Origin: Spirochaetia bacterium
Lineage (GTDB): Bacteria; Spirochaetota; Spirochaetia; UBA9216
Assembly: GCA_965140585.1 (NCBI GenBank)
Contig: OZ223269.1
Location: forward strand, 96,001 to 160,000
Reading direction: 5' to 3'
DNA length: 64,000 nucleotides
The translations under genes were made by a program, and so were the position numbers. Below, piece after piece: positions 2,495 through 63,816 of the stretch (position 1 is the stretch's first letter; each line of letters starts with the position of its first letter). A model generated the notes under the pieces. It made no database searches. It saw only the letters and a list, made by a program, of their open reading frames with translations, and was not told where the DNA came from.

Positions 2495-2634
2495 AAACTC
2501 TGTAAAGTCTTTAATAATCAGCAGATACCCCGTTTTTACAGAGATTGACACAGCCCCTTCGTTTGTTTAGTATTAAATAACCCGCGATTGAAAAACTCTT
2601 TTTGTGCATACCGCAGGAAAATAAGGAATAATTA

Positions 2635-4296: not shown

Positions 4297-4330
4297 CGAT
4301 TCAGTTCATTAAAGACTTAATATAATATTC

Positions 4331-4362
4331 AAAGGCTGTTCTTTTTCGAACAGCCTTTTTTT
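4331..4362 (+). terminator. Intrinsic terminator after the helicase
   Basis: AAAGGCTGTTC-loop-GAACAGCCTTT followed by a T-tract. Confidence 0.85.
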
Positions 4363-4419
4363 ATAGCATATACATCACAAAAAATTTGCTTAAATAAAAA
4401 TATTGCAATAAAATTATAT

Positions 4420-5196
4420 ATGACAGATTCCGATTTGATATACGGCTTATTTGCAACATTTGATTACCCGTGCTTTTCAATAAGTCAGCTGAAATGTTTA
4501 ACTGCACCCTTTGAAGTTTCTGAAACCAGCTTGCGTTCAATACTCTCAAGGATGAAAAAACAGAACGTACTGGAAATAAGCCGTAAGGGGCGTACAGCCT
4601 TTTACACACCGACGGCAGGCTGCAGGCGGTTTGGCGCCAATACAGCAAGGGCCTTTCATGAGCCGGAACATGTAGAATGGGACGGCAAAATTGTTTCCGC
4701 AGCTTTTTCATTATCAGATTCATCATCAAGGTATCAGCTTCAGAAAAAACTGAAGGAATACAGATTCGCACCGCTGTTTCCTGGCTTTTGGGTAAGGCCG
4801 TTCTCAGACGAGTATGATTATAATTTTGTTTTTAATGACTTTATTAAATCTGGGAACTGCTGCCTGACTATCGGTCTGATGACACCGGAAATGACCCCGG
4901 GTACTGCAGCCGAATTATGGAACCTGAAGGAACTGTGGGCAATAATGGAAAAACAGGTTGCCAGTTTGGAGATAACTTACAGCAGCCTGGAAAGCTTATC
5001 TGCAGAGGAGGTGTTTAGAAAAAAGATGGAAGAAGGAGATGCGGCAGTACGCATTCTCGCAGAAGACCCGCTGCTTCCGCCTGTGCTGCAGGGAAATACC
5101 CGGCCCGGAGCAGAGTTAAGACAGGTATTTATGAAGTTTGATAAAAAGGCAACGGAACTTTCCCGTCCTTTCTGGAGTGCCTGTTTAAAGTCCTGA
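4420..5196 (+). CDS. PaaX-family transcriptional regulator
   Basis: N-terminal wHTH (SETSLRSILSRM...GRTAFY), central WDGK..., C-terminal DPLLP motif typical of PaaX. Confidence 0.8.
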   Translation: MTDSDLIYGLFATFDYPCFSISQLKCLTAPFEVSETSLRSILSRMKKQNVLEISRKGRTAFYTPTAGCRRFGANTARAFHEPEHVEWDGKIVSAAFSLSDSSSRYQLQKKLKEYRFAPLFPGFWVRPFSDEYDYNFVFNDFIKSGNCCLTIGLMTPEMTPGTAAELWNLKELWAIMEKQVASLEITYSSLESLSAEEVFRKKMEEGDAAVRILAEDPLLPPVLQGNTRPGAELRQVFMKFDKKATELSRPFWSACLKS

Positions 5197-5207
5197 GGAG
5201 GATAAAA

Positions 5208-5672
5208 ATGGAGTATTCAGTTATAGTCTGGAAGGCTGTGGTATGGGGTGCCGTTATTCTTGTAATCGACATGATTATAGGAAACCTGCTTTATATGAAC
5301 CCTGTAACAGCAGGCATCTATAAGGCCTATGAAGGAAACCCTGTAATGAAGACTGTGGATGATTTCGGCGGTATCGGATGGTATGTAGGGCTGAACATGG
5401 GAGCAGGAGTCTTTATTGTGATTGTGTATCTGCTTCTATATCTGGCCGTTTACAGTGTCCTGCCGGAAAATAAGATTGCGGCCGGATTGATTTTTGGTGC
5501 GGCTATAGTTCTTGTTAAAGTACTTCCGAAAGCATTTAACCAGTTCATGCTTTTTCATTATCCTGTTAAGCTTATAGTGACGCAGGCTGTCAATTCTTCA
5601 ATTTCTTCAATGCTGTTCGGTCTGTACACTTCGGGCATTTATCAGATCACTGGAACAGTAGTCCAGAGGTAG
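5208..5672 (+). CDS. Hypothetical membrane protein (about 4 TM)
   Basis: Hydrophobic segments, GAGG RBS, 11 nt downstream of the PaaX-like gene. Confidence 0.7.
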   Translation: MEYSVIVWKAVVWGAVILVIDMIIGNLLYMNPVTAGIYKAYEGNPVMKTVDDFGGIGWYVGLNMGAGVFIVIVYLLLYLAVYSVLPENKIAAGLIFGAAIVLVKVLPKAFNQFMLFHYPVKLIVTQAVNSSISSMLFGLYTSGIYQITGTVVQR

Positions 5673-5692
5673 GTTTACTCTCCGGTCTGTAA

Positions 5693-6259
5693 TCACAGGA
5701 TTTTCTGCATTATATATACGTCATCGAACTCTCTGACTATTGAAAATCCGTTTCTTTCATACATATTAACAGTTCCATGATATTTTGAAGCTACAGTCCG
5801 GGTTTCTTTCCGGGGATAGACTTCAATGAGTTCATATCCCTGCTGTTCAAAGTCTTCACAGGCTGTTTTAAGCAGGGCAGATGCTATCCCCTTGCCCCGG
5901 TGAGAGGGATCAATTACAAAACAAACTATAGCAGCTTTCTTTTGTCCGGCGCCTGTTTGTATGTCCTCATCTTCAGTGAGACGAATATAATTGCGGATAT
6001 TTCCTGCATTGACCCATCCCGCAGGTTCACTGTCAATATAGGCTATAAAACCGTTTAGACTGCCGGCCGCAATACGTTCTGCAGCGAGCTCTCTGTTTTC
6101 ACTGCCCGCTCTGTTTTTCCATCCCTGTCCGGCGGGAAAGTGATAGAAGCAGCAGTAGCATGCCGACCAGTCGGGATTATCGCAGAACGCGATGTCATCG
6201 AAGAAATGCAGGTAGTCAGCTGCCATATCCGCAGTCAGTTTTTTTATTTCAATTTCCAT
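5693..6259 (-). CDS. GNAT-family N-acetyltransferase
   Basis: Acetyl-CoA motif HRGKGIASALL and WSACYC N-terminal motif. Likely start ATG 6259 after GGAGG. Confidence 0.85.
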   Translation of the reverse strand: MEIEIKKLTADMAADYLHFFDDIAFCDNPDWSACYCCFYHFPAGQGWKNRAGSENRELAAERIAAGSLNGFIAYIDSEPAGWVNAGNIRNYIRLTEDEDIQTGAGQKKAAIVCFVIDPSHRGKGIASALLKTACEDFEQQGYELIEVYPRKETRTVASKYHGTVNMYERNGFSIVREFDDVYIMQKIL

Positions 6260-7073
6260 TATTTGCCTCCAGCACACTGATTGTATGTGATATAAGTTGT
6301 ATGCCGCCAGGCGCTCCATGGCCGGGAATAACAAGTCTGGTTTCTGGGAATTTAATCAGAAGCTTTTTCAGTGAAAGAACCCATTCGGATAAGTCTCCAT
6401 CATCAGTATAACCCGGTTTTTTTGTGTCTGCTGAAAGTATCATGCAACCGCCGAAAAGAATATTTCTGTCGGGAAGATAAACGATGATGTTGTCAAAGGT
6501 ATGTGTTGGCCCTGGATAGCAGATGTTAACAGATTCCGATCCGATTTGAAGATGTTGCTCTTCATTTATATCAAAGGTGATTGCAGGAGGCTGGAAATTG
6601 AAATCATCATAGACTCTCCGGTATTTTTCATACCTTCGGCCCTGAAGCCACCCGGTCATTTTTGACATGGTTGTACTGTTGTGTGTTTGAAGCAGTTCAC
6701 AGGTAAGTGTCGAACCGTAAACAGGTATGCCGCGGCTTAACAGTGTTTCGTTCCCGCCCAGGTTGTCGATGTGGAAACCGGTATTTATTTCTGTAATCAT
6801 GCAGTCAGTTCCGTATCGGGAATAAAGCCATTCAAGGACCTCGGCTGTTGCTTCGGGGGTGTAGGGAGTATCCATCCAGAGAATGTTCGATTCATCCATG
6901 ATTACAAGAAGCGAGTTTGCAGGCCAGGGAAAACTGTGGGTCACCAGAAAAACGTCTGTTTCAATTTCAGTAATTTCAAGTTCATCGGAAAGCTGAAGGG
7001 CCGGAAGAGCTGCGGTAAAAAGAAAAATAAACAGGAACACGATGACCGTGAAAGTTCGACAGGTTTTCATCAC
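6249..7073 (-). CDS. Subclass B1-like metallo-beta-lactamase, SPS-1-type (Gly at His116)
   Basis: Signal peptide, then TGFHIDNLGG (G116-x-H118-x-D120), GPTHTFDN (H196), FGGCM (C221) and IPGHG (H263). Confidence 0.8.
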   Translation of the reverse strand: MMKTCRTFTVIVFLFIFLFTAALPALQLSDELEITEIETDVFLVTHSFPWPANSLLVIMDESNILWMDTPYTPEATAEVLEWLYSRYGTDCMITEINTGFHIDNLGGNETLLSRGIPVYGSTLTCELLQTHNSTTMSKMTGWLQGRRYEKYRRVYDDFNFQPPAITFDINEEQHLQIGSESVNICYPGPTHTFDNIIVYLPDRNILFGGCMILSADTKKPGYTDDGDLSEWVLSLKKLLIKFPETRLVIPGHGAPGGIQLISHTISVLEANNGN

Positions 7074-8587
7074 TCGCTGGCTATTATCTCCATGACCTCC
7101 CGAAAGCTTTCAAGTCCTGATTCAAGGTTTTCAATAATTTCACCGGCAAGCACATCCGGATCGGGAAGGTTATCAAGGTCTGTCAGACTCTTGTCTTTAA
7201 GCCAGAAGATATCGAGGTTAGTTTTATCTCTTTCAAGGATTTCGCTGTATCTGTATTTTCGCCATCGGCCATCGGGATTTTCTTCACTCCAGGTTTCGGA
7301 CCTCTTGTTTCTGTTTCCAGGGTTATACAGTTCCACGAAGTCTTTAAGGTCCTCGGTGGTCATGGGTTTCTTTTTCTGGGTGTGGTGGATATTTGTCCGG
7401 TAATCATAGAACCATACTTCGCTTGTCTGTGCATCCTTGCTTGCAGGCCTGTTGTCAAAGAACAGGACATTTGCCTTTACGCCGTTTGCATAGAAGATAC
7501 CTGTCGGCAGTCTAAGGATGGTATGAAGATCGGTTGTCAGCATCAGCTGCTTTCTGATTTCTTCTCCGGCTCCGCCTTCAAAAAGGACGTTATCAGGCAG
7601 AACAACCGCCGCCTGACCGCTTACCTTGAGCATCGATTTTATGTGCTGTAGGAAGTTAAGCTGTTTATTCGAAGTAGTCTCCCAGAAGTCCTGACGGTTG
7701 TAGGTGAGCTCTTCCCGTTCTGTTTCTCCCTCTTCATTGGTGATTGTCATGCTGCTTTTCTTTCCAAACGGAGGATTAGCAAGCACGTAGTCGTAGCGGT
7801 TGCCGTCGTCTGATATTAGAGAATCATTGGGTGATATGTAGGTGTCGCCGTCTATCTCGCCGATGTTATGCAGGTACATGTTCATAAGGCAGAGGCGGCG
7901 GGTATTGGCTACAATCTCATTGCCGTGGAAGGTTCCGGTTTTTAGAAACTCCTTCTGGTCACGGTCAAGCTGACTGTTTTCGGTTATCCAGTCGTAGGCA
8001 GCCAGGAAGAAACCGCCGGTACCGCAGGCAGGGTCGGCAATGGTTTTACCGGGTTTGGGCTGTACGCAGGCTACCATGGTTTTAATCAACGCGCGCGGGG
8101 TAAAATACTGACCGGCACCCGATTTTGTGTCCTCGGCATTCTTTTCAAGAAGGCCCTCGTATATACGGCCCTTGATATCAGCCCCCATGATTGACCACTT
8201 TTCCTGATCAATCATGCTTATAACCTTTGAAAGCTTTGCCGGGTCCTGAATCTTGTTCTGGCTCTTTGTGAAAATCTGCCCGAGCATCCCCCTCTCGGTG
8301 CTGAGGCTGCGAAGCAGCTGTGAATAGAAGGATTCAAGCTCGGCGCCCCGCCTGGAACAGAGGTTCTCCCAGCTGCAGATATCTGCATCGGCTATCTCGT
8401 TACCATCAACATCTTTAAGATGAGGAAATACAAGCCCCTTGCTGTACGGCGGTTTATTAAGCTCATCAGCCATTTTAAGAAATAGCAGGTAGGTAATCTG
8501 CTCAAGGTAGTCTCCGTAGCTTACCCCGTCGTCACGAAGAACGCTCGCTAGGTTCCATATTTTTGATATTATTGTTGAATCTGTCAT
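7070..8587 (-). CDS. hsdM: Type I R-M methyltransferase subunit
   Basis: GQYFTPR, DPACGTGGF and NPPF motifs. Confidence 0.95.
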   Translation of the reverse strand: MTDSTIISKIWNLASVLRDDGVSYGDYLEQITYLLFLKMADELNKPPYSKGLVFPHLKDVDGNEIADADICSWENLCSRRGAELESFYSQLLRSLSTERGMLGQIFTKSQNKIQDPAKLSKVISMIDQEKWSIMGADIKGRIYEGLLEKNAEDTKSGAGQYFTPRALIKTMVACVQPKPGKTIADPACGTGGFFLAAYDWITENSQLDRDQKEFLKTGTFHGNEIVANTRRLCLMNMYLHNIGEIDGDTYISPNDSLISDDGNRYDYVLANPPFGKKSSMTITNEEGETEREELTYNRQDFWETTSNKQLNFLQHIKSMLKVSGQAAVVLPDNVLFEGGAGEEIRKQLMLTTDLHTILRLPTGIFYANGVKANVLFFDNRPASKDAQTSEVWFYDYRTNIHHTQKKKPMTTEDLKDFVELYNPGNRNKRSETWSEENPDGRWRKYRYSEILERDKTNLDIFWLKDKSLTDLDNLPDPDVLAGEIIENLESGLESFREVMEIIASE

Positions 8588-9558
8588 GTTCTGTTCCTGT
8601 TGAGTATGCTTATAATCAGCCTTTTTACAACTTCACTCTCATCGGGTTTGCTTACAGCGATGTAGAGAGTCAGGGCTGCAAGGGTGTTGTTGTCGATTAT
8701 CTGGGTGCCGTCGGTTTTATGCAGGGCCCCGTTTATGTCAAGAAAGCAGAGAAAGCAGGCTGCAGCAATACGTTTGTTGCCGTCCACAAATGAGTGGTTT
8801 TTGGTAATGAAGTACAGCAGGTTTGCAGCCTTTTCTTCTATGGAAGGGTATAGTTCCTTTCCTCCGAAGCTCTGCTTAATCTGATTTACCGAACTTTCAA
8901 AGCTTTCATCCTTGGGCTGCGCGAAAACACCGGAGGCAAAATCGGAGTACATGCCTTCAATAAGTGTAAGGTAGTCCTTTACTTCCGGGTATACGGTGCT
9001 GCGGCTGGTTTTGCCTGTTTTATCAAGTTCTTCATGGTCGTAGTCATCAAGCAGGGCAAGACCTTTGGCAAATATCCTGAAGACCTGACGATCGTTATCA
9101 TCGGTAATTGTTTCAATTGCCCTGCCTACAATGCGGATGCCGGTTTTAAGGTATTCAACCTGCTGCTGTTTCTGCTGCAGCCGCTTTTCGTTGATTGAGT
9201 AACCCTGTACAAGGTAGTCTTTCAGCCGCCGGGTTGCCCACTGACGGAACTGGGTAGCTGTTAGAGATTTTATTCTGTAACCTGCTGCTATTATAATATC
9301 AAGGTTATAGTATTTCTGCGTCCTTCTGACTTTTCTTGTGCCCTCCGTTTGAACTTGTAAGAAATCCTTACAAGTTGCCCCCTCTTCCAGTTCCTTTTCA
9401 TTATAGATGTTTTTCAGATGCAGCGTTATGTTCTGTGGAGTAGTGTCAAAAAGTTCGGCCATAGATTTCTGGGTCAACCATACAGTTTCACCATCAAACT
9501 GAACCTGCACTTCAACATCATTGCCAGAACTTTTAAAAATCTCTATCTTATTTTCCAT
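8584..9558 (-). CDS. RhuM-like domain fused to a Fic/Doc domain
   Basis: N-terminal TVWLTQKSMAELF...YYNLDIIIAAGYRI (RhuM) and C-terminal HSFVDGNKR Fic/Doc motif. Confidence 0.85.
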   Translation of the reverse strand: MENKIEIFKSSGNDVEVQVQFDGETVWLTQKSMAELFDTTPQNITLHLKNIYNEKELEEGATCKDFLQVQTEGTRKVRRTQKYYNLDIIIAAGYRIKSLTATQFRQWATRRLKDYLVQGYSINEKRLQQKQQQVEYLKTGIRIVGRAIETITDDNDRQVFRIFAKGLALLDDYDHEELDKTGKTSRSTVYPEVKDYLTLIEGMYSDFASGVFAQPKDESFESSVNQIKQSFGGKELYPSIEEKAANLLYFITKNHSFVDGNKRIAAACFLCFLDINGALHKTDGTQIIDNNTLAALTLYIAVSKPDESEVVKRLIISILNRNRT

Positions 9559-52221: not shown

Positions 52222-53979
52222 ATGCCTGCAAGAAAAACTATCAGCATGGAGCGAAACTCCATGCTTTTGTTCAGATTTACCCTGGTTCTTCTCGTTATCA
52301 ATGTACTTGCTTTCTCTGCAATCGGTTTCTCTTTTTTCAGGAACCTGCGTGTTGAGAAAGCCTCAGCTCAGCTTTATAAGGATATTAACAGCCTTGTTGT
52401 GCAAGTGATGTCTGATAAGGCTGATCGTTCAGCCGGCGCAGAATATAAGTACAGGCAGATTTTGGAAGATCTTAAAAAAAACCGCTGGATTTTAAGGCTG
52501 AAAACTCTTTTCCCCGCACCGGAATATCAAAACACTGATGAAAACGAAGAATACAGGGCTGTTATCAGAGAATATGCAACTGCGGCCCGAACTCTTATAA
52601 ATAAAATCACCAGGCGCTCCTACTATATAATAAGTCTTATGATTTTTATATCATGTATCGCCTCTGCCGGTATTCTTGCAAACATGATCAGATGGCGCCG
52701 GCATCAGCTTGTTTTTACACGTGAACTTCATTCCGGATTCAACCGGCTTGAGATGATTCTTAAATACCAGAATCCGCCTTGCATGGATAAGGTTGAATAC
52801 AGGATTAATGAAATTGATGAGCTGAATGCGGTTATAGAACGTATAAGTTCCGATGAATACTATAACAGGGAAGTTCGTGAGGCTACGGTCTCCGGTAACC
52901 TGAATAACTTTCTCGATGATGTATTTGAAAAGCTTGGAAAGCGGATGAGCTGTGACAGGGTTGCTATTGCATTTCTTGATTCTTCAGAGAATCTGATAGC
53001 TGAAACTGCAGTTGCGTCTTATACTAGGATGTCACTGGAACCGGGATTCCGGGAAAATATCAATGACTCATCTCTTCCTGATTTATTAAAAACCGGAAAA
53101 CCTCGGATTATAAATGACCTTCCGACATACGCCAGGGATAGAAAAATTTCAGAAGCAACTGCGAAAATTCTTCATGAGGGCATAAAATCAAGTATGACGA
53201 TTCCAATGTTTTTCGGCAAAAAGTGCCTGGGATTTTTCTTTGTTTCAAGTTTGAATTTAAATGCTTATAATGATGAAACTCTTAATTATACGGTCAGGCT
53301 TGTGAACCTCATAAAGCAGAATCTGTATATTGAATTCCTGCTTCAGGAAATCATTTCCGAAATTACCAATGCCTTTGTTACTCTGATGCATGAAAAAGAT
53401 AATGAAACATCAAATCACATAATCAGAATGTCAGAGTATTCCTATATGATAGCCAGATCTTATCATGAACATATAAAACCCCTGTCTCCCCGGTTTATGC
53501 GTGAGATTCGCTGGTTTTCACCGCTGCATGATATAGGAAAAGTCGGAATTCCCGATGCAATCCTTTTAAAGGAAGGGCCGCTGGATGATTCAGAGATGAC
53601 TGTGATGAAAAGCCATGTCAATATTGGCATGCGTGTAATGGATAAGATGAACAGCAATCTGCTTAATGTGGCCAGTTTTCCGCTTATGCAGACTGCTATC
53701 GAAATTATTTCCGGTCATCATGAAAAATTTGACGGTTCCGGCTATCCTTTCGGCCTTGAAGGCCGGGATATTCCGCTTGCCGGAAGAATTGTTGCAATTG
53801 CCGATGTATTCGATGCCCTGACTTCAAAAAGACCATATAAGGCCGCCTTCAGCATCGAAAAGTCAGTCAGCATTATTGAAGAAGAAATGGGAGCTAACTT
53901 TGATCCTAACTTGATAGAAGCTTTCAAGCTCTGTATGCATGACATCAGACAGATCTATGAGAAGTTCAAGGAAGTCTGA
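52222..53979 (+). CDS. Membrane-bound GAF plus HD-GYP cyclic dinucleotide phosphodiesterase
   Basis: Two TM, GAF domain, LHDIGK, HHEKFDGSGYP, ADVFDALTSKRPYK. Confidence 0.9.
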   Translation: MPARKTISMERNSMLLFRFTLVLLVINVLAFSAIGFSFFRNLRVEKASAQLYKDINSLVVQVMSDKADRSAGAEYKYRQILEDLKKNRWILRLKTLFPAPEYQNTDENEEYRAVIREYATAARTLINKITRRSYYIISLMIFISCIASAGILANMIRWRRHQLVFTRELHSGFNRLEMILKYQNPPCMDKVEYRINEIDELNAVIERISSDEYYNREVREATVSGNLNNFLDDVFEKLGKRMSCDRVAIAFLDSSENLIAETAVASYTRMSLEPGFRENINDSSLPDLLKTGKPRIINDLPTYARDRKISEATAKILHEGIKSSMTIPMFFGKKCLGFFFVSSLNLNAYNDETLNYTVRLVNLIKQNLYIEFLLQEIISEITNAFVTLMHEKDNETSNHIIRMSEYSYMIARSYHEHIKPLSPRFMREIRWFSPLHDIGKVGIPDAILLKEGPLDDSEMTVMKSHVNIGMRVMDKMNSNLLNVASFPLMQTAIEIISGHHEKFDGSGYPFGLEGRDIPLAGRIVAIADVFDALTSKRPYKAAFSIEKSVSIIEEEMGANFDPNLIEAFKLCMHDIRQIYEKFKEV

Positions 53980-55201: not shown

Positions 55202-56830
55202 TTATGCTCCCATAAACATCTTTATATCATCCTCAACTTCACCTATTCCGGCAATACCGAAATTCTCAATAAGAACATTAGCCACATTCGGGCTGAGGAA
55301 GGCGGGGAGAGTCGGGCCGAGATGAATGTTTTTAACACCAAGGTAGAGAAGAGCCAGAAGCACTATTACAGCCTTCTGCTCATACCAGGCAATGTTGTAG
55401 GAGATAGGCAGGTCATTGATGTCGTTAAGTTCAAACACTTCTTTAAGCTTAAGCGCAATCACCGCCAGTGAGTAGGAATCGTTGCACTGTCCTGCATCCA
55501 GAACCCTTGGTATTCCGCCGATATCTCCGAGTGCGAGTTTATTGTACCGGTACTTTGCGCAGCCGGCTGTAAGTATAACAGTATCCTGCGGAAGCTGCTG
55601 TGCAAAATCGGAGTAGTAGTCGCGGCTCTTCATCCGGCCGTCGCAACCAGCCATTACAAAAAACTGCTTTATTGCCCCGCTTTTTACTGCATCTACAACC
55701 TTGTCTGCAAGCGCCAGTACCTGCGCGTGTGCGAATCCGCCTACAATCTCACCCTCTTCAATCTGAACGGGAGCCTGACATTTTTTCGCATGCTCAATCA
55801 CTGCCGAGAAGTCCTTCTCTCCGGCCTTACCTTTAATATGCTTTACGCCTTCAAAGCCTGCTGCTCCGGTGGTGTATACCCTGTCTTTATAGGAATCTTT
55901 AGGCGGTGTAATACAGTTTGTTGTAAAAATAATCGGGCCGTTGAAAGATTCAAACTCAGTATTCTGCTTCCACCATGCATTACCGTAATTGCCCACAAAG
56001 TGGCTGTATTTCTTGAAGGCCGGGTAGTAGTTTGCCGGAAGCATTTCACTGTGGGTGTATACATCTACTCCGGTCCCTTCGGTCTGAGCCAGAAGCTGTT
56101 CCATATCCTTCAGATCATGTCCTGAAATCAGGATTCCCGGGTTTGAACCGGTACCGATGTTGACCTTTGTGATTTCGGGATTACCGTATAACTCAGTGTT
56201 GGCCTTATCAAGCAGAGCCATCACATCTACACCATTCTTTCCGCATTCGAGAACCAGTGCAGTCAGTTCATCTGCACTCAGATTATCGTTTACAGTTGCA
56301 GCAAGCCCCTTGTAGAGGAAAGAAAATACAGAATCATTAAAATATCCCAGGTTTGCCGCATGCTCGGCATATGCAGCCATACCCTTGAGTCCGTAAACCA
56401 GCAGCTCACGAAGTGAACGTACATCCTCATTTTCTGTAGCCAATACTCCTACAGTTGCTGCTTTTATTTCGTATTCAGCCTCCGTTTTAGGGCTCCATAC
56501 TGCGCAATCGGGAAGGCTTCCATCAACTGTTACCCTTGACTTGAGGCTGTCCCTGATAGCAAGCGCTTCCTTCACGGCTTTTACGAACACAGCCTTGTCA
56601 AAATTGGCATTGGTTATTGTCTTAAAAAGGCTGTCGTACATGAATTTATCAGTTGCAGCATCGGTTACGCTGTTATCGCCTGCTTTCTCTGCATAGAAGG
56701 CAATTCCCTTAAGTGTAAAAATAAGCAGGTCCTGCATATTGGCAACATCGTCGCTCTTACCGCATACTCCCTTAACTGTACATCCGGTTCCTTTTGCGGC
56801 TTCCTGACACTGAAAACAAAACATCGACAT
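55202..56830 (-). CDS. hcp: Hybrid cluster protein (hydroxylamine/NO reductase)
   Basis: MFCFQCQE...[43 protein letters not shown]. Confidence 0.97.
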
Positions 56831-56896
56831 ATAAAACTCCTTTGTTGTCTCTTAAAAAGTATACAGGTACTCTAATACCGGAATTGAGTTAATGCT

Positions 56897-56910
56897 GTAA
56901 CATATGTTAC
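56897..56910. promoter_or_regulatory. Candidate HcpR-type operator
   Basis: Perfect palindrome GTAACATATGTTAC about 70 bp upstream of hcp, matching the GTAAC-N4-GTTAC type of site associated with HcpR regulators. Confidence 0.7.
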
Positions 56911-56961
56911 GAAATTAAAAAATAATGGTCGAATTTTTCATAAAGTGGCATATTATAACTG

Positions 56962-57609
56962 ATGAAAAAGAAGCCTGTTTTTACTTTATTATCAGTTTGC
57001 TGCCTTCTTATGCAGTCCTGTCTGACTTTCGCAGGAGATGGAACAATGAATGTGCCCTATTATGTTCAGGGAAAGGATGCCTCCTGGGCTGATGAAAAGC
57101 TTGGGAATAAATCGGAGTTCACAATCAGAACTCACGGCTGCGCCCTTACTTCAATTGCGATGATAGCTTCATACCACACAAAGAAGAACTATAATCCGTC
57201 CAAAATGAATGACTGGCTTAAGGCTAATAACGGCTTTGATGATGCCTGGGAAGGCGGTAAATACGTCGGTGAGGTTCAGCTGCGCTGGCCGGCAATGACA
57301 GCTTTCGATGACGGCTGGGTTTATACCCGCTTTGACTGGAGCGCGCTTCCGGCAGATCTTGTCCTGATCGAATACTATCTTGATAAGAGAATCCCGGTTA
57401 TTGCCGAAGTTCTCTACAAGGGGGCGCCTCATTATGTAGTTCTTACAGGATATGGAGAGAACGGGTTTGAAATGAATGATCCTGAATTTCCTGATGAACA
57501 TATATTTAATAATCAGTATAATATCTCAGACAAATGGGGTTCCGGGCCGGCAAGAAACATCTACGGTATACGAATCCTTTACCCGGGAGATTTAAATGGC
57601 AAAGGTTAA
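56962..57609 (+). CDS. Exported C39-like (papain-fold) peptidase, possible lipoprotein
   Basis: Signal peptide with LMQSC, then YYVQ, HGCALTS, PHYVVLTG and NDP (Gln/Cys/His/Asp arrangement). Confidence 0.75.
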   Translation: MKKKPVFTLLSVCCLLMQSCLTFAGDGTMNVPYYVQGKDASWADEKLGNKSEFTIRTHGCALTSIAMIASYHTKKNYNPSKMNDWLKANNGFDDAWEGGKYVGEVQLRWPAMTAFDDGWVYTRFDWSALPADLVLIEYYLDKRIPVIAEVLYKGAPHYVVLTGYGENGFEMNDPEFPDEHIFNNQYNISDKWGSGPARNIYGIRILYPGDLNGKG

Positions 57610-57841
57610 ACTGATTGCGGACCTGAATAATGCTACAGAGGCTGAGCTGGTCGCAAATATACTTAAAACTGAAGAAATACCCTATAATATAAAAAGCAAC
57701 GAAACAACAGCCTATGACGGGCTTTTTACTCTTGAACACGGCTGGGGTAGTATTGAGGCGCCCGAAGAGTATGAGACTCAGATACTTCAGATTCTGGCTG
57801 ATTTCAGGGAAGGGCAGTTCGAAGAGGATGGAAGTGAATAG
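57596..57841 (+). CDS. DUF2007-like small protein
   Basis: EAELVANILKTEEIPY...AYDGLF...WGSIEAPEE. Overlaps the upstream stop. Confidence 0.7.
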   Translation: MAKVKLIADLNNATEAELVANILKTEEIPYNIKSNETTAYDGLFTLEHGWGSIEAPEEYETQILQILADFREGQFEEDGSE

Positions 57842-57972
57842 TAGCCGCGATTCGTCGCATACATCCAGTTCTTCCAGATAATCATCAGCAGACTTCAATT
57901 GTTGCAGCAAAAACCGGATAAACATATAAAAAATTAATGTCTGATCACTTTAAATAGTACATAATTAAGTTA

Positions 57973-58974
57973 ATGAAAACTTTCGGAACGTATTTCCATC
58001 CTGAAACCTGTATGACAATAAAACCGATGAACGAGATTGAATTCATTGGTCAGTCGCTTGATTATTATGAAGAGGTCCGGGCAGGGATAAGAAAAGAACT
58101 GAGGGTCCCAGAACTGCCTCTGAACCGGGTTGAGTTTGATGAGTTTAAGTCGGTTCATGGCAAAGAATATCTTGATGCAATCAAAGCCTTTGCAGGCGGT
58201 GATGAACAGGCCGATCTCACTATAAGCGCTGAATGTTTCAATCTGCCTCTTGCCCTTCCCGGTTTTGAATACGGTCTCGGCGGTCTTTATTCGGCAGTTG
58301 ATCTGATGAAAAGGGGAGTTCTGGACCGCGCATACTGTTTTACCCAGCCAAGTCATCATTCATTTCCATCCAGTGGGCATGGCTACTGTCTGCTGAATTC
58401 CATGGCAGCTGCGGCACTGTATGCGCAGAAATCCGGATTCAGGAAAATCCTTATCATTGACTGGGATTTTCATCATGGAGACGGAACCCAGACAATATTT
58501 GAGAATGACAGTTCGGTTTACATCATAGAGATTCACAGCGCAATAGACCTGTACATGAGTATGGTTAAATCAATAGAGCTCGGAACTACTGTCTATTCAT
58601 CCTCAGTAGGCCACTGCAGTATTCCGGTTCTCGATGAAAACTATACCGATGAGTTTTTTCATGATGAACTCGGGCTGAAGGGTGATGTCTTCAGGGCTGA
58701 GAATGTTATGATGCAGTTCCGTCTTGCACTTGAAAATCTTCCGTTCACACCGGATATGATCTTTGTCTTCGACGGACATGACGGACATACCCTTGACTGC
58801 GGGAAGTATGTGACCAAGTTTGAGTATGAGGATTTTGCCATGATGACAAGGGCTGTCATTGAAATTTCAAATAAATACAATGCTCCGGTTATTTCCCTGC
58901 CCGGAGGCGGATATGAGCTTGATATAACTGTAAACTCAGCGGCTGCTCATATGAGCGAGCTGTTTCTAAGCTGA
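57973..58974 (+). CDS. Histone deacetylase-superfamily (Zn-dependent) amidohydrolase
   Basis: PSHHS, GYCLLN, DWDFHHGDGTQ, GHDGH..D, GGGY. Confidence 0.88.
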   Translation: MKTFGTYFHPETCMTIKPMNEIEFIGQSLDYYEEVRAGIRKELRVPELPLNRVEFDEFKSVHGKEYLDAIKAFAGGDEQADLTISAECFNLPLALPGFEYGLGGLYSAVDLMKRGVLDRAYCFTQPSHHSFPSSGHGYCLLNSMAAAALYAQKSGFRKILIIDWDFHHGDGTQTIFENDSSVYIIEIHSAIDLYMSMVKSIELGTTVYSSSVGHCSIPVLDENYTDEFFHDELGLKGDVFRAENVMMQFRLALENLPFTPDMIFVFDGHDGHTLDCGKYVTKFEYEDFAMMTRAVIEISNKYNAPVISLPGGGYELDITVNSAAAHMSELFLS

Positions 58975-58976
58975 AA

Positions 58977-60044
58977 ATGACTGATAAAGAACTTTATAAA
59001 AAAATCAGAGGATGCATCTTTGGTGCTGTAATCGGTGACGCGATAGGTGAGAATTTCGGAGCAAGGGACAAAGATTATATTGAAACCGAACTCCAAAAGT
59101 CCGCCGTCATACGCTATACCGATGATTCGCTGATGAGTTTCGGCATATGTCAGCAGCTGATTGTGCATGGTGAGATCAGGGTTGAACAGCTTTCGGATAT
59201 CTTCATGTATGATCATCTTGCAAATCTCGATCGGGCATATGGGACAGGAGCCTATTTCCTTTTCAATATCCGAAAGGATACAGCGGGCGTGTCCTCAAAG
59301 AGGCTGAACCGCTTTGTCAGCGAGCTTCTCTACAAAAACAGCCGCGGTTCAATGGGCAACGGCGCCTGCATGCGTACCTCTCCAATCGGGCTGTGGTTCT
59401 GCGATAGACCCCGGCTTATAAAAAAGAATGCCGTAAAATCAGCCCGAACAACCCACATCCATCCGCTGGGCGTTGATTCAGCTGTAATTATGGCAAAGGC
59501 TGCAGCGCTTGCTTTAGATGCTGATAAAATCAGTAACGATGATTTCATAGCTGAACTGCTAAAAGTATCTTCAACTGGAGCGTTCAGGGGAGCGCTTAAA
59601 AAAATAAGAACACTGCTTAACATCGGGGCTGATTCGGACGAATGCATGAACTCCTTTCTTCGTAATGAGACGGCAGTTGAATCGCTTCCTTTTTCAATTC
59701 TAACTTTTTTAAGAAACAAGGATTCTTTTGAAGACTGCCTTTATGAAGCAGTTGGCGCAGGCGGAGATACTGATACAATTTCATCCATGGCATGCGCCCT
59801 GAGCGGTGCTTCTCTGGGAATAGAAGGAATTCCGGAGAGGCTTTTATCCGTGATTGAAAACTATGATTACATTGAAAAATTAATTGATTACTTTATACGG
59901 GCACGAAGCGAAGAGGATGTTAAACAGGATTTTCTTGATATGAAAGATGAAACTTTCCCGGGGGCTCTGCTTGAGGAGAATGATAAAGTGTCTTTCAAAA
60001 ATATTGATAAACTCCCCATTGTCAGGGCTATGAAGGAATTGTGA
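58977..60044 (+). CDS. ADP-ribosylglycohydrolase (DraG/ARH family)
   Basis: GAVIGDAIG, YTDDS, GNGACMR, TH, GGDTDT. Confidence 0.92.
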   Translation: MTDKELYKKIRGCIFGAVIGDAIGENFGARDKDYIETELQKSAVIRYTDDSLMSFGICQQLIVHGEIRVEQLSDIFMYDHLANLDRAYGTGAYFLFNIRKDTAGVSSKRLNRFVSELLYKNSRGSMGNGACMRTSPIGLWFCDRPRLIKKNAVKSARTTHIHPLGVDSAVIMAKAAALALDADKISNDDFIAELLKVSSTGAFRGALKKIRTLLNIGADSDECMNSFLRNETAVESLPFSILTFLRNKDSFEDCLYEAVGAGGDTDTISSMACALSGASLGIEGIPERLLSVIENYDYIEKLIDYFIRARSEEDVKQDFLDMKDETFPGALLEENDKVSFKNIDKLPIVRAMKEL

Positions 60045-60064
60045 TGAAAGGAGAATTATAAGCC

Positions 60065-61156
60065 TTGAATTTTTTAGAACCGAAATTTCTTGAAATACTA
60101 AGAACCCCTGAGATAAAGAATGTGCTGCTTGTCGGTTGCGGTGGAGGCTTTGATTTCATTCACGGGATGTTGCTTTATCCTGCGCTGATGGAGCTGAACA
60201 AGAATGTTGTGATAGGAAGCTATTCATTCGGACTGACTGATAAGATCAATTGTGAAACGGTGAATATTCCCGGTATAAATGACATTGAAATCAAACTTTG
60301 TACAGGCTCAATTATACCGGATCCTCATTATGCTCCCGAGATAAATGTCTGCAGATATCTTGATGCTGTCTACCCGGAAACCTCACACTCTGTCTACGCC
60401 TATTATGCCAGAGACTTTAATGTCGGAAAACTGAAAAGACTGTATGAATATATATGTAAGAAGCATTCCATCGACTGTATTATTGCAATTGATGGAGGTT
60501 CCGATTCTCTGATGACTGGTGATGAAGCCGGTCTTGGAGACGTTATCGAGGATCTTGTATCGGTCACTGCCATATCACTGCTGTCCTGTGATATACCTAA
60601 ACTCCTTTTCACAGTCGGACTGGGAGCTGACAGATTCAACGATGTTTCTGACGCCTCCGCGCTTCGTGCAGTAAGTGAACTGCAGCGGACCGGCGGATAT
60701 CTGGGCTCACTGGGACTTGATAAATCGGCAGCTTCCTTTATTTTTTATAAAAACTGTATTGAGTATATCTATGATAAGCAGACGTTCAGATCCACGGTTG
60801 CAGGCTTTATTCTTGGAAGTATTGAAGGATACTACGGAAATGAAGAGGTTCCTGTATATCTGAACCGTAAATTTAAATCCAAAGATAAGTTTGCCTTCTG
60901 GCCGGTTATGGGATTTCTGTTTGCCTTTGATATTGTGAAAGTAGCAGAACGTTCCCATCTTCCAGAAGTAATCAGAAACTGCTCTTCTGTCCCTCATACC
61001 TGGAAGGCTGTTACCACATTCAGGAAGAGTATCAGCGAAAGAATCCGAATGATAGAAAACCTGCCCCAGTATGAAGATATGCGTGCCGTGGAGCGGTATA
61101 ATTTTACGACCGGTTCACTTGAAGGGGGAGTCTATGACGAACTGCCTGAACTGTGA
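60065..61156 (+). CDS. DUF1152-family protein
   Basis: LVGCGGGFD, PE, IDGGSDSLMTGDEAGLG..ED, GLGAD. Confidence 0.8.
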   Translation: MNFLEPKFLEILRTPEIKNVLLVGCGGGFDFIHGMLLYPALMELNKNVVIGSYSFGLTDKINCETVNIPGINDIEIKLCTGSIIPDPHYAPEINVCRYLDAVYPETSHSVYAYYARDFNVGKLKRLYEYICKKHSIDCIIAIDGGSDSLMTGDEAGLGDVIEDLVSVTAISLLSCDIPKLLFTVGLGADRFNDVSDASALRAVSELQRTGGYLGSLGLDKSAASFIFYKNCIEYIYDKQTFRSTVAGFILGSIEGYYGNEEVPVYLNRKFKSKDKFAFWPVMGFLFAFDIVKVAERSHLPEVIRNCSSVPHTWKAVTTFRKSISERIRMIENLPQYEDMRAVERYNFTTGSLEGGVYDELPEL

Positions 61157-61207
61157 AAAAACTGCATATTTTATTTGAAAAAAATCATATTCAGGTATAA
61201 ACTTATC

Positions 61208-61228
61208 TAAGTGTGAATAACACACTAA
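61208..61228. promoter_or_regulatory. NrtR-type operator overlapping a sigma70 promoter
   Basis: 21-bp near-perfect palindrome TAAGTGTGAATAACACACTAA with a GT-N7-AC core, just 3' of TTGAAA(61175)-17-TAAACT(61198). Confidence 0.75.
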
Positions 61229-61266
61229 GAAGGCCGCTATAACATTATTTAAAAAAGGAGCCTCTA

Positions 61267-62766
61267 TTGAAAACTTTCAGCTATAAAATAATCTGGGAAG
61301 GCGATACGAAATTTCCTGTAAAACAGGTGAGTTTTCAGAAGATCAATTACAGATTTACTCAGGTTCCGGCAGGAGCGGATGTCAGAATCTTCGACGCCCG
61401 CAGATGGGACAAATACTGCGATGCTCAGGATTTCTACCGAAAAATGTCGATCCCGTCACTTGTAATTGTTCCTGATGAGCTTGAGTCTGTATGGCTGCGG
61501 AAACTGCTGCCGGAAGACAGCGTTGTACTTTCCTCATCCTTTGACGAAAACTTTACACTGCATCTAGTAAGATTCTGTATAAACACTCATGCAAGACAGC
61601 GGTCGCTAAAAATGTCGCTTACAGATCCGTTAACAGGACTTCTTCCACGGAGTGAAATTTCAAGACGTCTCAGGTTCGAACTGTTTATGAATGAATCTGA
61701 GAAACCTGTTTCACTTATGATGATGGATATAGATAATTTTAAAATAATCAATGACACCTTCGGTTTTCAAAACGGAGACAGGCTGCTTCGAAGGATTGCT
61801 GGTATTCTCCGGAACTGCATGACCGGTGAAAACGGGATCTGCCGCATGGGCGGTGATGAATTTGCAGTTGTAAGCAGAATGAACAGACAGCAGGCTGCAG
61901 GAGCTGCTGATTTTATCCGTAGAGAGGTTGAGCAGCTTGATATTAAGGATTTAATCTCCGGAGTTGAAATTAAAGGTGATTTTTCTGTTTCAATTAGTAT
62001 TGGAATCTGTGTTGCCGATACACCTATGGACAGTGAGGAGATGTTCAACGAGGCTGACAGCGCCCTGTACATGGCAAAGGGTGCAGGACGCAACAGGGTG
62101 GAAGTTGCCGGCGGAACCGATAATCCTGAATCAGACCCGGCGGATGTTATGATAAAATACTTTGAAAACAGGGTTAAAGTTCTTACAGACAGGCTTACTG
62201 CGGCGCTATCATCCAGCAGCCGGAAGTTCGTTAGCAGTATGGCGCAGCAGGCGGATACCGACGGACTGACAGCTCTCTTTGACCGCGGATATTTCAACCG
62301 CAGGATGAAGCGTGAGTTTGACAGGGCCAGGGAATACAAACATCCTCTATCACTTATCTTTGTTGATATAGATTTCTTCGGTCAGGTCAACAAGACCTAC
62401 GGATGGCCGACCGGTGACCGGGCTCTTCAGCATGTGGCTGAAGTAATTAAGGGCTCTGTCCGTACAGTGGACTGGGTTGCCAGATACGGCGGTGAAGAAA
62501 TGTGTGTTGTACTGCCTGATACAAATGAGGATGAAGCAAATGAGGTCGCCGAGCGTATATGGATAAATGCGGGCGAGGCACAGATTAATGCCTACGACGG
62601 CAGCCGTTTTACAATAACCCTCAGTGTCGGTGTAGCGGAGTTATCGCATAAGGATGATCAGCTTATTGACTTTATTCAGAGAACAAGCGAACGTACTAGA
62701 TGCGCTAAGGAAAACGGCAGAAACCAAATCTGCCAGAAGGACAGGATTACAGATGTACCAGTATAA
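61267..62766 (+). CDS. Diguanylate cyclase with two GGDEF domains
   Basis: Domain 1: DPLTGL...DIDNFK...GGDEF. Domain 2: DGLT...DIDFFG...RTVD-x5-GGEEM. AAGGAG RBS before TTG. Confidence 0.9.
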   Translation: MKTFSYKIIWEGDTKFPVKQVSFQKINYRFTQVPAGADVRIFDARRWDKYCDAQDFYRKMSIPSLVIVPDELESVWLRKLLPEDSVVLSSSFDENFTLHLVRFCINTHARQRSLKMSLTDPLTGLLPRSEISRRLRFELFMNESEKPVSLMMMDIDNFKIINDTFGFQNGDRLLRRIAGILRNCMTGENGICRMGGDEFAVVSRMNRQQAAGAADFIRREVEQLDIKDLISGVEIKGDFSVSISIGICVADTPMDSEEMFNEADSALYMAKGAGRNRVEVAGGTDNPESDPADVMIKYFENRVKVLTDRLTAALSSSSRKFVSSMAQQADTDGLTALFDRGYFNRRMKREFDRAREYKHPLSLIFVDIDFFGQVNKTYGWPTGDRALQHVAEVIKGSVRTVDWVARYGGEEMCVVLPDTNEDEANEVAERIWINAGEAQINAYDGSRFTITLSVGVAELSHKDDQLIDFIQRTSERTRCAKENGRNQICQKDRITDVPV

Positions 62767-63445
62767 ATACCCGCATCCGGCAGTTACAGTAGACTGCGTG
62801 GTTTTCGGACTCGATGATAATGAACTTAAGGTTCTGCTGATAAAAAGGCTTCTTGAACCTTTTAAAGACAGCTGGGTTATTCCCGGAGGATTTGTTGGTA
62901 TTGATGAGGATATCCCTGATGCCGCCAAAAGAGAGCTGCGCGAAGAGACAGGTGTTGAAAACATCTACCTTGAAGAGTTCGGTTCATACGGCAGACCCGG
63001 TAGAGATCCCAGGGAACGGGTGATAACTATTGCTTACTTCGCAATCGTCAATCTTTTCGACCATTCAGTAAAGGCTGATACTGATGCAAGTGAGGCTGCC
63101 TGGTTTCCTGTCTCTCAACTTCCACGAACTGCTTTTGATCACGGACAGATTCTAGCTGATGCTCTTTCAAAGCTTCAGCAGAAGGTAAAGCGTCAGCCTC
63201 TTGTATTTGAGTTTCTTCCGGAAGAGTTTACCCTAAGGCAGGTCCAGCATCTGTATGAACTGATACTCGGGACAGTACTTGACCGCAGGAATTTTCAGAA
63301 GAAGCTTCACAAAACAGGAATGCTTATTCCGCTTGAACGCTTTGAACAGGATGTCTCCCATCGTGCGGCAAGGTTTTACCGTTTTGATTATGAAACCTGG
63401 GAGACCCGTAAAGATGATGGATTTCAGGCGATGACAAATTGTTGA
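62753..63445 (+). CDS. nrtR: NrtR-family Nudix/wHTH transcriptional regulator
   Basis: YPHPAVTVD, Nudix box GGFVGIDEDIPDAAKRELREETG, RDPRERV, FDH, wHTH FTLRQVQHLYE...DRRNFQKK. ATG 62753 overlaps the cyclase 3' end. Confidence 0.88.
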   Translation: MYQYKYPHPAVTVDCVVFGLDDNELKVLLIKRLLEPFKDSWVIPGGFVGIDEDIPDAAKRELREETGVENIYLEEFGSYGRPGRDPRERVITIAYFAIVNLFDHSVKADTDASEAAWFPVSQLPRTAFDHGQILADALSKLQQKVKRQPLVFEFLPEEFTLRQVQHLYELILGTVLDRRNFQKKLHKTGMLIPLERFEQDVSHRAARFYRFDYETWETRKDDGFQAMTNC

Positions 63446-63452
63446 AGTATGT

Positions 63453-63695
63453 ATGACTACTGATGATATAAAAATCCAGATATTCGGGCAGGATGAGCTG
63501 GTTAAGCATCTGTGACAGGGGAAATCTGTGTATTCCCACTGTATATCGATCACCAACCCTGAATGCAGGTCTCCCGGTGACCCGTGCTGCAGGACGCCGC
63601 CGGCTTTCTGATAGGCATCCGGCGTAATGCCATGCCGCTGAAAAGATCCGTTCTTCTGTTTGATGAGGTGCCGGGCTCAAATCCTTCCGAATTAT
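63453..63695 (+). pseudogene. Decayed protein-tyrosine-phosphatase-like gene
   Basis: MTTDDIKIQIFGQDELVKHL*QGKSVYSHCISITNP..., then in another frame IRRNAMPLKRSVLLFDEVPGSN. These resemble the N- and C-termini of small predicted PTPs. The CX5R core is absent. Confidence 0.45.
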
Positions 63696-63756: not shown

Positions 63757-63791
63757 TAAAAAAGGCTGCTCCGGAAATTCGGAAGCAGCCT
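63757..63791 (-). terminator. Intrinsic terminator for the convergent gene at window end
   Basis: AGGCTGCT..CCG/CGG..AGCAGCCT hairpin with an A-tract on its left (U-tract on the minus strand). Confidence 0.7.
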
Positions 63792-63816
63792 GTAATGTAA
63801 TCTATTGAAATATTAA

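Follow-up and report, generated by a model that had tools for sequence, protein, structure and literature searches.

The window analysed here is a stretch of 64,000 nucleotides (nt) from the genome of a Spirochaetia bacterium (G000; 4.85 Mb in 10 contigs), positions 96001-160000 of its contig C6, and our subject is a gene cluster at positions 57973-63695 in which enzymes of ADP-ribose-related families lie beside an NrtR regulator and a tandem-GGDEF protein. The listing of open reading frames (ORFs), together with Pfam searches, gives five intact genes on one strand, encoding in order an HDAC-fold enzyme, an ADP-ribosylglycohydrolase (ARH1), a DUF1152 protein, the tandem-GGDEF protein and NrtR, and a sixth element that is the pseudogene of a CX5R phosphatase (Table 1). 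The first intergenic gaps are 2, 20 and 110 nt, after which the GGDEF gene overlaps nrtR, and a last gap of 7 nt follows. With the Met at 62753 as the start of NrtR, in line with its 228-amino-acid (aa) relatives, the overlap amounts to 14 nt. An earlier note on this DNA, made from the letters alone, had described six co-oriented and closely spaced genes, and both its coordinates and its spacing are confirmed by the ORF listing and Pfam. The same note read the set as a toolkit that reverses modifications inflicted by toxins or phages, with the released ADP-ribose derepressing a cyclic di-GMP (c-di-GMP) output, and knew of no system on record with such a composition.

Table 1. Features of the cluster and its downstream border, in positions of the 64,000-nt window
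Feature	Position	Strand	Basis
HDAC-fold zinc deacylase, class IIb-like, 333 aa	57973..58974	+	Pfam Hist_deacetyl, E 1.2e-42
ARH1 ADP-ribosylglycohydrolase, ARH3-like, 355 aa	58977..60044	+	Pfam ADP_ribosyl_GH, E 1.1e-43
DUF1152 protein, 363 aa, TTG start	60065..61156	+	Pfam PF06626, E 1.3e-14, above the Pfam cut-off
Sigma-70-like promoter candidate, TTGAAA-17-TAAACT	61175..61203	+	Consensus match only, 9/12
Candidate NrtR-type operator AGTGTGAATAACACACT, GT-N7-AC core	61210..61226		Perfect palindrome
Tandem-GGDEF diguanylate cyclase (by motifs), 499 aa	61267..62766	+	Pfam GGDEF, E 7.3e-75, two matched stretches
NrtR, 230 aa with Met start at 62753; ORF open from 62654	62753..63445	+	NUDIX, E 7.6e-21; NrtR_WHD, E 7.3e-23
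Junction at which the sister species holds a second ARH gene	63441..63448		blastn against the sister locus (L004)
CX5R (PTP/DSP-type) phosphatase pseudogene	63453..63695	+	Intact orthologue in L004
GC-rich terminator-like hairpin between the cluster and a convergent minus-strand gene	63757..63795		Sequence inspection

The regulator combines an N-terminal Nudix domain with a C-terminal winged helix (Pfam). Its Nudix box, GFVGIDEDIPDAAKRELREETGV, fits the general pattern GX5EX7REUXEEXGU, and because the box is canonical NrtR could also hydrolyse ADP-ribose itself. Orthologues that are 50-58% identical are found in other Spirochaetota and in a Planctomycetia metagenome-assembled genome (MAG); among 401 genomes sampled from the phylum nine hold one, and the regions around eight of these were retrieved. 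Several stand next to genes of nicotinamide adenine dinucleotide (NAD) metabolism (pncB at locus L050, a NadR-like gene at L054 and nadE at L055), and since its orthologues keep this company, the window protein is a bona fide NrtR.

In the 110-nt gap between DUF1152 and the GGDEF gene lies the palindrome AGTGTGAATAACACACT, the sole exact match within the window. A promoter-like TTGAAA-17-TAAACT ends 7 nt before it, and a scan of the plus strand between the two genes gave no terminator-like site. The palindrome has the same GT-N7-AC core that Rodionov et al. (2008, PMC2330246, cited here and below from part of its text) give for NrtR sites. In 192,779 bases from 12 loci that bear NrtR, exact AGTGT-N7-ACACT occurs eight times, always between genes and never more than 100 nt ahead of a cluster gene, compared with two occurrences in 1,058,309 bases from 116 loci that lack NrtR. 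Exact copies precede cluster genes at L004, L041 (twice), L042, L043, L054, L055 and L057, in the last three 33-59 nt upstream of nrtR itself, and copies with one mismatch are present at L053 and L056. The whole of G000 holds six exact sites, where 5.6 would be expected; of these, the cluster site alone is intergenic, the other five being inside ORFs, and no NAD gene in G000 has an exact operator. From these comparisons, the palindrome anticipated in the gap appears to be an NrtR-type operator common to orthologous NrtRs, at which binding would be expected. NrtR seems to be a regulator of local reach, acting on GGDEF-nrtR and, in the sister species, also on the ARH2 and phosphatase genes that follow; with the operator directly before GGDEF-nrtR, NrtR control of a c-di-GMP output, as the earlier note had it, is a reasonable reading.

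The combination of an NrtR orthologue, this operator and an ARH gene recurs in four other lineages (L041, L042, L043 and L053, the last with one mismatch in the operator), and the NrtRs of the first three are 54-58% identical to that of the window. Around this combination the partners shift: DUF1152 is present in three of the four lineages, a CX5R-type phosphatase in three, tandem GGDEF, SIR2 and Macro in two each, and KptA and HDAC in one each. A Treponematales MAG (L041) carries a minus-strand PTP gene and then M28-operator-DUF1152-HDAC-operator-SIR2-vWA::Macro-NrtR-ARH. In a Planctomycetia MAG (L042), NAD synthase genes (nadE) are followed by operator-NrtR-KptA/Tpt1-ARH-DUF1152::ARH, where the C-terminal part of DUF1152 continues in frame into a second ARH domain. 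At 6477-8423 of that locus, the ORF of KptA shares about 190-230 nt with that of ARH, and a frameshift near 8400 splits DUF1152; either assembly errors or true decay may be the reason. A further Spirochaetota MAG (L043) has ARH-NrtR-DUF1152 on one side of an operator and, on the other, a minus-strand run with histidine kinase (HK) and PTP genes, and SPFH and tandem GGDEF genes are found 3.7 kb downstream. In that run (2141-6346, minus strand), the phosphatase homologue comes last and a histidine-kinase-type ATPase gene first; the run diverges from ARH-NrtR-DUF1152 across the operator, and NrtR control may extend both ways. L053 (genome G149, 73% G+C) reads minus-strand PTP, operator, NrtR-SIR2-ARH::MavL-type macrodomain-tandem GGDEF. 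The linkage claimed for these genes is therefore seen in independent lineages, where NrtR and ARH recur with DUF1152, tandem GGDEF, HDAC and a Cys-phosphatase.

Closer to the window, the gene arrangement is retained in the sister species and in a metagenome relative of about 88-90% identity (run X4), which holds HDAC through NrtR. The sister locus (L004) has 92% nt identity over 56001-63441 and continues after nrtR with a second ARH gene (ARH2, 285-318 aa, Pfam ADP_ribosyl_GH E 2.9e-49) and then a phosphatase. By blastn the window has no counterpart of L004 11378-12301, which is ARH2, and a public contig of run X2 has a further 924 letters between 63441 and 63448. The L004 phosphatase is intact at 185 aa with the CX5R motif HCWRGISRS; it is weakly similar to DUSP10 in the active-site region (E 6.6e-4), and its Pfam DSPc match (E 3.9e-4) is below the cut-off. 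Set against this orthologue, the window copy is interrupted at codon 21 by an in-frame TGA (63513-63515) and has lost the 251 nt of L004 12456-12706, including the CX5R motif, at a junction (63600/63601) that a public X3 contig, obtained from another sample of this organism, spans without differences; the decay suggested for this gene is thus real. We had also considered the region after nrtR as a decayed minus-strand transposase, which the L004 alignment rejects in favour of the phosphatase remnant. Because L004 has both ARH2 and an intact phosphatase, comparison of the two sequences indicates that the ancestral cluster is one of seven genes.

Homologues of the phosphatase are present at L041, L043 and L053, of which the first two keep HCWxGxSRS and the third does not. 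The L053 homologue (9002-9487, minus strand), which adjoins NrtR, matches those of L004, L043 and L041 at both ends, and its middle, about 60 residues with the HCWxGxSRS loop, is gone in what seems to be an in-frame deletion; the catalytic core may have been lost here independently of the pseudogene in the window.

Of the window's enzymes, the HDAC-fold protein has HDAC6 as its best solved relative (E 6.4e-37). Its PSHHS, DWDFHHGDG, GHD and GGGY stretches align with HDAC6 CD1 and keep every catalytic residue, namely the His-His pair, the three zinc ligands (Asp, His, Asp) and the Tyr of GGGY. The best solved relative of ARH1 is ARH3 (E 1.8e-23, over residues 8-302), and the TDD and GGDTDT metal-binding motifs are retained. 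A predicted complex of ARH1 with DUF1152, run without controls, scored 0.00, which speaks neither for nor against an interaction. Elsewhere, G000 has sirtuin and macro genes outside the cluster and three ARH genes in its 4.85 Mb; the one SIR2 match is on the contig of the cluster, at a distance of about 0.96 Mb, and within the cluster the ORF listing and Pfam give no ADP-ribosyltransferase (ART) or sirtuin gene.

The first gene behind the operator encodes an N-terminal region of about 115 aa, a first GGDEF domain (GGDEF), a linker, and a second GGDEF domain in which RxxD stands five residues upstream of GGEEM (RTVD-x5-GGEEM). By these conserved active-site motifs, the protein is predicted to be a diguanylate cyclase. 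Its orthologues at L043 and L053 are 34-35% identical (L043 35%) and have the identical architecture, with a conserved linker and a poorly conserved N-terminus, and the stretch R..DWVARYGGEE of the second domain is invariant in all three. A search of the 401 phylum genomes (E ≤ 1e-45, the best three candidates per genome scored) found orthologues in two, G000 and G149, both beside NrtR and ARH; with L043, this rare protein stands at NrtR-ARH loci in three lineages. The N-terminal ~120 aa have no Pfam match at E ≤ 5 and were modelled with AlphaFold2 (AF2) at a predicted local distance difference test score (pLDDT) of 72.9; Foldseek found nothing for this model at E ≤ 0.001 and returned a few receiver domains at probability ≤ 0.28. 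Separately, a 4-7 fold rise in depth at 61572-61775 in all four runs does not reflect copy number and comes from cross-match, many unrelated contigs aligning over about 40-50 nt to this conserved GGDEF stretch.

DUF1152 is a term absent from the literature that we searched, and the family is a large one, its two subfamilies having more than 1,000 homologues apiece (the second more than 1,179). An alignment of 35 sequences has 61 invariant columns, and the invariant motifs include GCGGGFDF, GSYSFG, YAYYAR, DGGSDS, GDE and GxGxDRxN. For the AF2 model (pLDDT 84.5, predicted template-modelling score 0.86), an exhaustive VIA-align search put LmbE/PIG-L-type folds in all seven top rows at Z 8.7-10.8, the next row being at 7.4, on a scale where best Z values of 7-8 are common. 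These alignments cover 175-196 residues at a root-mean-square deviation of 3.6-4.0 and 5-12% identity. Six of the seven are deacetylases, some of them putative (Dbv21, diacetylchitobiose deacetylase, BC1534, LnmX, TT1542 and MshB), the seventh is the hydratase GalB, and CARF domains appear at Z ~6-7. The structural check proposed earlier for this protein gave an LmbE-like fold from VIA-align and, from Foldseek against the PDB, no match at E ≤ 0.001 and generic Rossmann-like rows only. A profile search of PDB sequences gave one chance-level row (E 0.9), and a search of the ESM Atlas nothing but DUF1152 clusters.

We predict from the model that DUF1152 has an LmbE-like three-layer alpha/beta fold, a fold-level lead and not proof of function. 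The zinc deacetylases of the LmbE/PIG-L group (MshB 1q7t, Dbv21 3dfi, 3we7) have the same three-layer fold as the model, whereas DUF1152 has no sequence-level match to any solved chain. LmbE enzymes carry a His/Asp zinc motif after strand 1, and at this place DUF1152 has the loop GCGGGFDFxH, in which D30 is nearly invariant and H33 invariant. The many invariant Asp and Glu residues suggest a metal site or a substrate differing from that of LmbE. Two longer proteins with a DUF1152 fusion were found, neither with a second Pfam domain on record, which is weak evidence. Among side observations, the C-terminal tail NFTTGSLEGGxFDE (window 60965-61156) is common to the window protein and its closest relatives (50-56% identity) and is not found in other DUF1152 proteins, and a Salinispira-labelled relative of 582 aa (L005 1825-3573) has a C-terminal extension of 220 aa without a Pfam match.

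The window DUF1152 is matched in 2 of 41 relatives, both of one genus, and PF06626 is found in 1 of the 401 phylum genomes. We compared 40 genome loci, from one-genome-per-species contigs, and 80 metagenome loci out of 543 relatives of the second subfamily, 44 of them at least 5 kb long. The four genome loci with ADP-ribose partners are L004 and the three lineages L041, L042 and L043. The other 36, without ARH, NrtR or HDAC within 6 kb, comprise 35 with an identity of 40-53% (for the most part from Planctomycetota, Myxococcota and others) and L038 at 41%, and outside one Polyangium group the 40 loci show no conserved DUF1152 neighbours. An ARH gene lies within 6 kb at four of the 40 genome loci and four of the 80 metagenome loci, and among the latter HDAC is near once and NrtR never. 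Because roughly 1 in 100 random genes would be expected to have an ARH within 12 kb (a rough estimate; compare the three ARH genes of G000), ARH near DUF1152 at 8 of 120 loci is an enrichment, yet a minority association. Besides the single DUF1152::ARH fusion (L042), individual loci read KptA-DUF1152-ARH (L095), DUF1152-ARH (L073, whose ARH shares 44-49% identity with the ARHs next to NrtR at L041, L043 and L053) and an operator with one mismatch followed by DUF1152-HDAC (L060). The proposed neighbourhood search thus bears out NrtR-ARH with shifting partners, and leaves most DUF1152 genes alone.

A metagenome piece of 8.6 kb without NrtR on it (L076, 6289-7936) has exact AGTGT-N7-ACACT 38 nt upstream of DUF4291, with DUF1152 directly after. 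DUF4291 has been proposed as an ART-like family whose neighbourhoods include NUDIX, Macro, ARH and KptA (PMC12522546, as far as the portion cited goes).

Beyond the cluster, the flanks hold hcp and a C39-like peptidase, and the sister genome has a lipocalin-like gene with proS. The stretch just upstream (56962-57841, plus strand) holds this C39-like cysteine peptidase, whose N-terminus resembles that of a lipoprotein, and a small ORF similar to DUF2007 (E 0.0062, under the Pfam cut-off); both are conserved in the sister genome, and a tie of the two to the cluster was not seen in other loci. About 4 kb upstream of the cluster, a 585-aa ORF (52222-53979, plus strand) contains HHEKFDGSGYP, which we take to be the HD-GYP signature of c-di-GMP phosphodiesterases. 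On the downstream side, the scan gave a minus-strand terminator-like site at 63784-63769, within the hairpin region of Table 1.

The claim that no such system had been described holds for the exact gene set and fails for its core. Iyer et al. (2022, Viruses 14:1977, PMC9503650, cited throughout from part of its text) predicted widespread 'ARG-centric' systems, in which an ARG enzyme is combined with a Nudix-helix-turn-helix (HTH) or WYL repressor (over 42% of systems), a coupled phosphatase of the rhodanese-phosphatase superfamily (about 55%), vWA or other chaperones, and Macro or NADAR add-ons. They proposed that such systems erase ADP-ribosylation inflicted by viruses, the released ADP-ribose derepressing the operon, so the idea of the earlier note is essentially a published prediction. 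The likeness is close in the sister genome, where the trio NrtR-ARH2-PTP is intact, and extends to the phosphatases of L041, L043 and L053, the vWA and Macro add-ons of L041, and a mosaic make-up that differs between close relatives. The window has the ARG, the Nudix-HTH regulator and, as the template requires, no coupled ART or sirtuin, with the phosphatase as a pseudogene. In contrast to the template, the ARH2-phosphatase core is lost or decayed in the window, and the related loci L041, L053, L042 and L095 have the sirtuin or KptA genes that it excludes. The main text of the 2022 paper has no GGDEF, c-di-GMP, HDAC or PF06626, which its Figure 7 or supplements might name otherwise, and among the lineages named in the text cited spirochaetes do not figure.

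A second precedent is the Streptomyces nrtR1-draG-SCO1765 operon (Rodionov et al. 2008, NAR 36:2047, PMC2330246), which likewise has a Nudix-winged-HTH regulator beside an ADP-ribosylglycohydrolase, in an autoregulated operon with a palindromic GT-N7-AC operator. It belongs to a different phylum and has another operator sequence, and in the spirochaete cluster the first putatively regulated gene is instead a tandem diguanylate cyclase, with HDAC and DUF1152 as extra members. The control of NAD genes described for the NrtR family in the same source is not seen in G000, whereas orthologues elsewhere do sit with NAD genes. Writer-eraser pairs such as DraT-DraG and the sirtuin-Macro operons, also named in PMC9503650, resemble L041 and L053, which combine SIR2, Macro and ARH, and ARH is the eraser family in such pairs; the window cluster differs in having no writer gene and no evident target protein. 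Since the core matches both the ARG-centric prediction and the NrtR-draG operons of 2008, within the portions of these papers cited, the kind of system itself is not new. What is new is a tandem diguanylate cyclase that NrtR seems to gate, and the tie of DUF1152 and, less specifically, HDAC to the NAD/ADP-ribose network.

On balance, we think it probable, with real room for error, that the cluster is a chromosomal island for ADP-ribose processing and signalling under a local NrtR, a variant of the NrtR-draG and ARG-centric systems. ARH1, going by its family, would cleave ADP-ribosyl conjugates or O-acyl-ADP-ribose (O-acyl-ADPr) to free ADP-ribose, and HDAC and DUF1152, presumably co-transcribed with ARH1 across the 2-nt and 20-nt gaps, may act on the same substrate class. 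Because of its predicted fold, its invariant acidic and glycine-rich motifs and its gene neighbours, the likeliest activity of DUF1152 is a metal-dependent hydrolysis of some ADP-ribose derivative that carries a substituent on its distal ribose. Candidate substrates are O-acyl-ADPr, ADPr-1''-phosphate and the 1'',2''-cyclic phosphate, derivatives that would come from NAD-consuming transferases, e.g. sirtuins, KptA/Tpt1 and DUF4291. NrtR would bind AGTGT-N7-ACACT just downstream of the GGDEF-nrtR promoter, at a site recognized by comparison across loci, until released by ADP-ribose, an effector that we assume for the window protein from its family; the tandem diguanylate cyclase and NrtR would then be expressed and c-di-GMP would rise. 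In the sister species, the transcript would run on into ARH2 and the Cys-phosphatase, which may process ADP-ribose further, both of which the window genome has lost.

Several observations weigh against this interpretation. The motif was relaxed once the first hits were known, and G+C content is not matched in the control loci. Co-regulation by NrtR is supported for GGDEF-nrtR, which the sole operator precedes, and not for HDAC-ARH-DUF1152, since upstream of the HDAC gene there is no operator with up to three mismatches. At L043, the tandem GGDEF is outside the NrtR operon, and the SPFH-GGDEF genes have no operator at up to one mismatch. The window and the L041/L043 proteins are of different subfamilies (DUF1152 27-33% identical, also at L042 among the partnered loci; ARH 22-32%), and the window HDAC has no match in L041 (tblastn, 1e-5); because the ARH1, DUF1152 and HDAC subfamilies differ, we regard these clusters as analogous assemblies and not as orthologous operons. 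ARH1 has Gly at the position of ARH3 Glu41, with a Glu three residues earlier, and the catalytic motifs noted earlier as intact are fully so in HDAC, and in ARH1 for TDD and GGDTDT. Lastly, no ADP-ribose-related neighbour accompanies DUF1152 at 36 of the 40 genome loci and 74 of the 80 metagenome loci, and no neighbour family of DUF1152 occurs in more than six of those 80.

A role in defence or repair, on the lines of the published model and the earlier note, would have ARH, HDAC and DUF1152 erase marks left by foreign ADP-ribosyltransferases of phages or toxins, the freed ADP-ribose derepress the operon, and c-di-GMP act as a protective switch. The sister core of NrtR, ARH2 and CX5R phosphatase matches the ARG-centric template, as do the vWA and Macro genes of L041 and the lack of an ART or sirtuin in the window cluster. 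The spread of DUF1152 (2 of 41 relatives, 1 of 401 genomes) and of NrtR (9 of 401) is patchy, and modules differ between sister species; mosaic make-up, patchy spread and module loss are hallmarks of conflict systems (Iyer et al. 2022, PMC9503650). However, PADLOC-DB 2.0 gave no family for HDAC, ARH or DUF1152, and its only matches are weak ones of generic palm and Nudix similarity (a Cas10 palm for GGDEF, E 2e-6; PDC-S07 for Nudix, E 4.5e-6). Beside the cluster we saw no nuclease, toxin, mobile-element or defence genes, so the anti-toxin or anti-phage role found no direct support. The related clusters encode NAD consumers that the published template, itself a prediction, excludes (SIR2 at L041 and L053, KptA at L042 and L095), and the same NrtR orthogroup stands at ordinary NAD genes elsewhere. 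Given SIR2 and KptA in these clusters, endogenous ADP-ribose processing fits at least as well, and we consider the defensive role unlikely. As to the source of the ADP-ribose, we lean towards endogenous turnover or signalling over foreign ADP-ribosyltransferases.

We judge it just as improbable that two unrelated units adjoin, an HDAC-ARH-DUF1152 metabolic operon (e.g. for small-molecule deacetylation or deglycosylation) and a separate GGDEF-nrtR, with no common pathway. The two halves are indeed parted by the 110-nt gap, in which a separate promoter-like element and the sole operator lie, HDAC-fold enzymes are not specific to ADP-ribose, and DUF1152 is mostly a lone gene, beside e.g. alpha-galactosidase, MoxR ATPase or GT2. 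Yet both halves recur together in other orders (L041, L042, L043), ARH-NrtR-DUF1152 forms one operon at L043, DUF1152-HDAC and SIR2...NrtR-ARH each have an operator at L041, and the arrangement is kept in both the sister species and the metagenome relative. Least likely of all, in our view, is an accessory NAD-homeostasis regulon in which the enzymes recycle by-products of NAD consumption to ADP-ribose for salvage and GGDEF is a passenger: orthologous NrtRs do sit with NAD genes, nadE adjoins the cluster at L042 and G000 has sirtuin and macro genes elsewhere, but no NAD gene of G000 has the operator, its other exact sites being inside ORFs, and a passenger would hardly be first behind the operator or have its rare orthologues (2 of 401 genomes, and L043) at NrtR-ARH loci.

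With the signalling island under NrtR as the preferred reading, a more specific relay from ADP-ribose to c-di-GMP can be proposed, which we hold as a tentative and still rather doubtful possibility. ADP-ribose freed by hydrolases of the ARH and DUF1152 types would lift NrtR repression of the tandem diguanylate cyclase, and DUF1152 would be a new hydrolase family with an LmbE-like fold. In a literature search by titles and abstracts, no paper on a diguanylate cyclase under NrtR control came up. If true, the relay would couple ADP-ribosylation stress or NAD turnover to a c-di-GMP lifestyle switch, the ADP-ribose coming from ADP-ribosylated targets or from by-products of sirtuins or KptA, and would offer a testable case of an ADP-ribose-sensing repressor gating a second-messenger enzyme. 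The contrast between the sister species, one with ARH2 and phosphatase intact and one with both lost, is a natural comparison for this purpose. For the widespread DUF1152 family, the cluster provides a first functional lead and a fold assignment, both at the level of prediction, and it brings spirochaetes into the range of the predicted ARG-centric systems. One core of regulator, operator and hydrolase occurs both with and without NAD-consuming 'writers', which bears on whether such systems serve defence or housekeeping.

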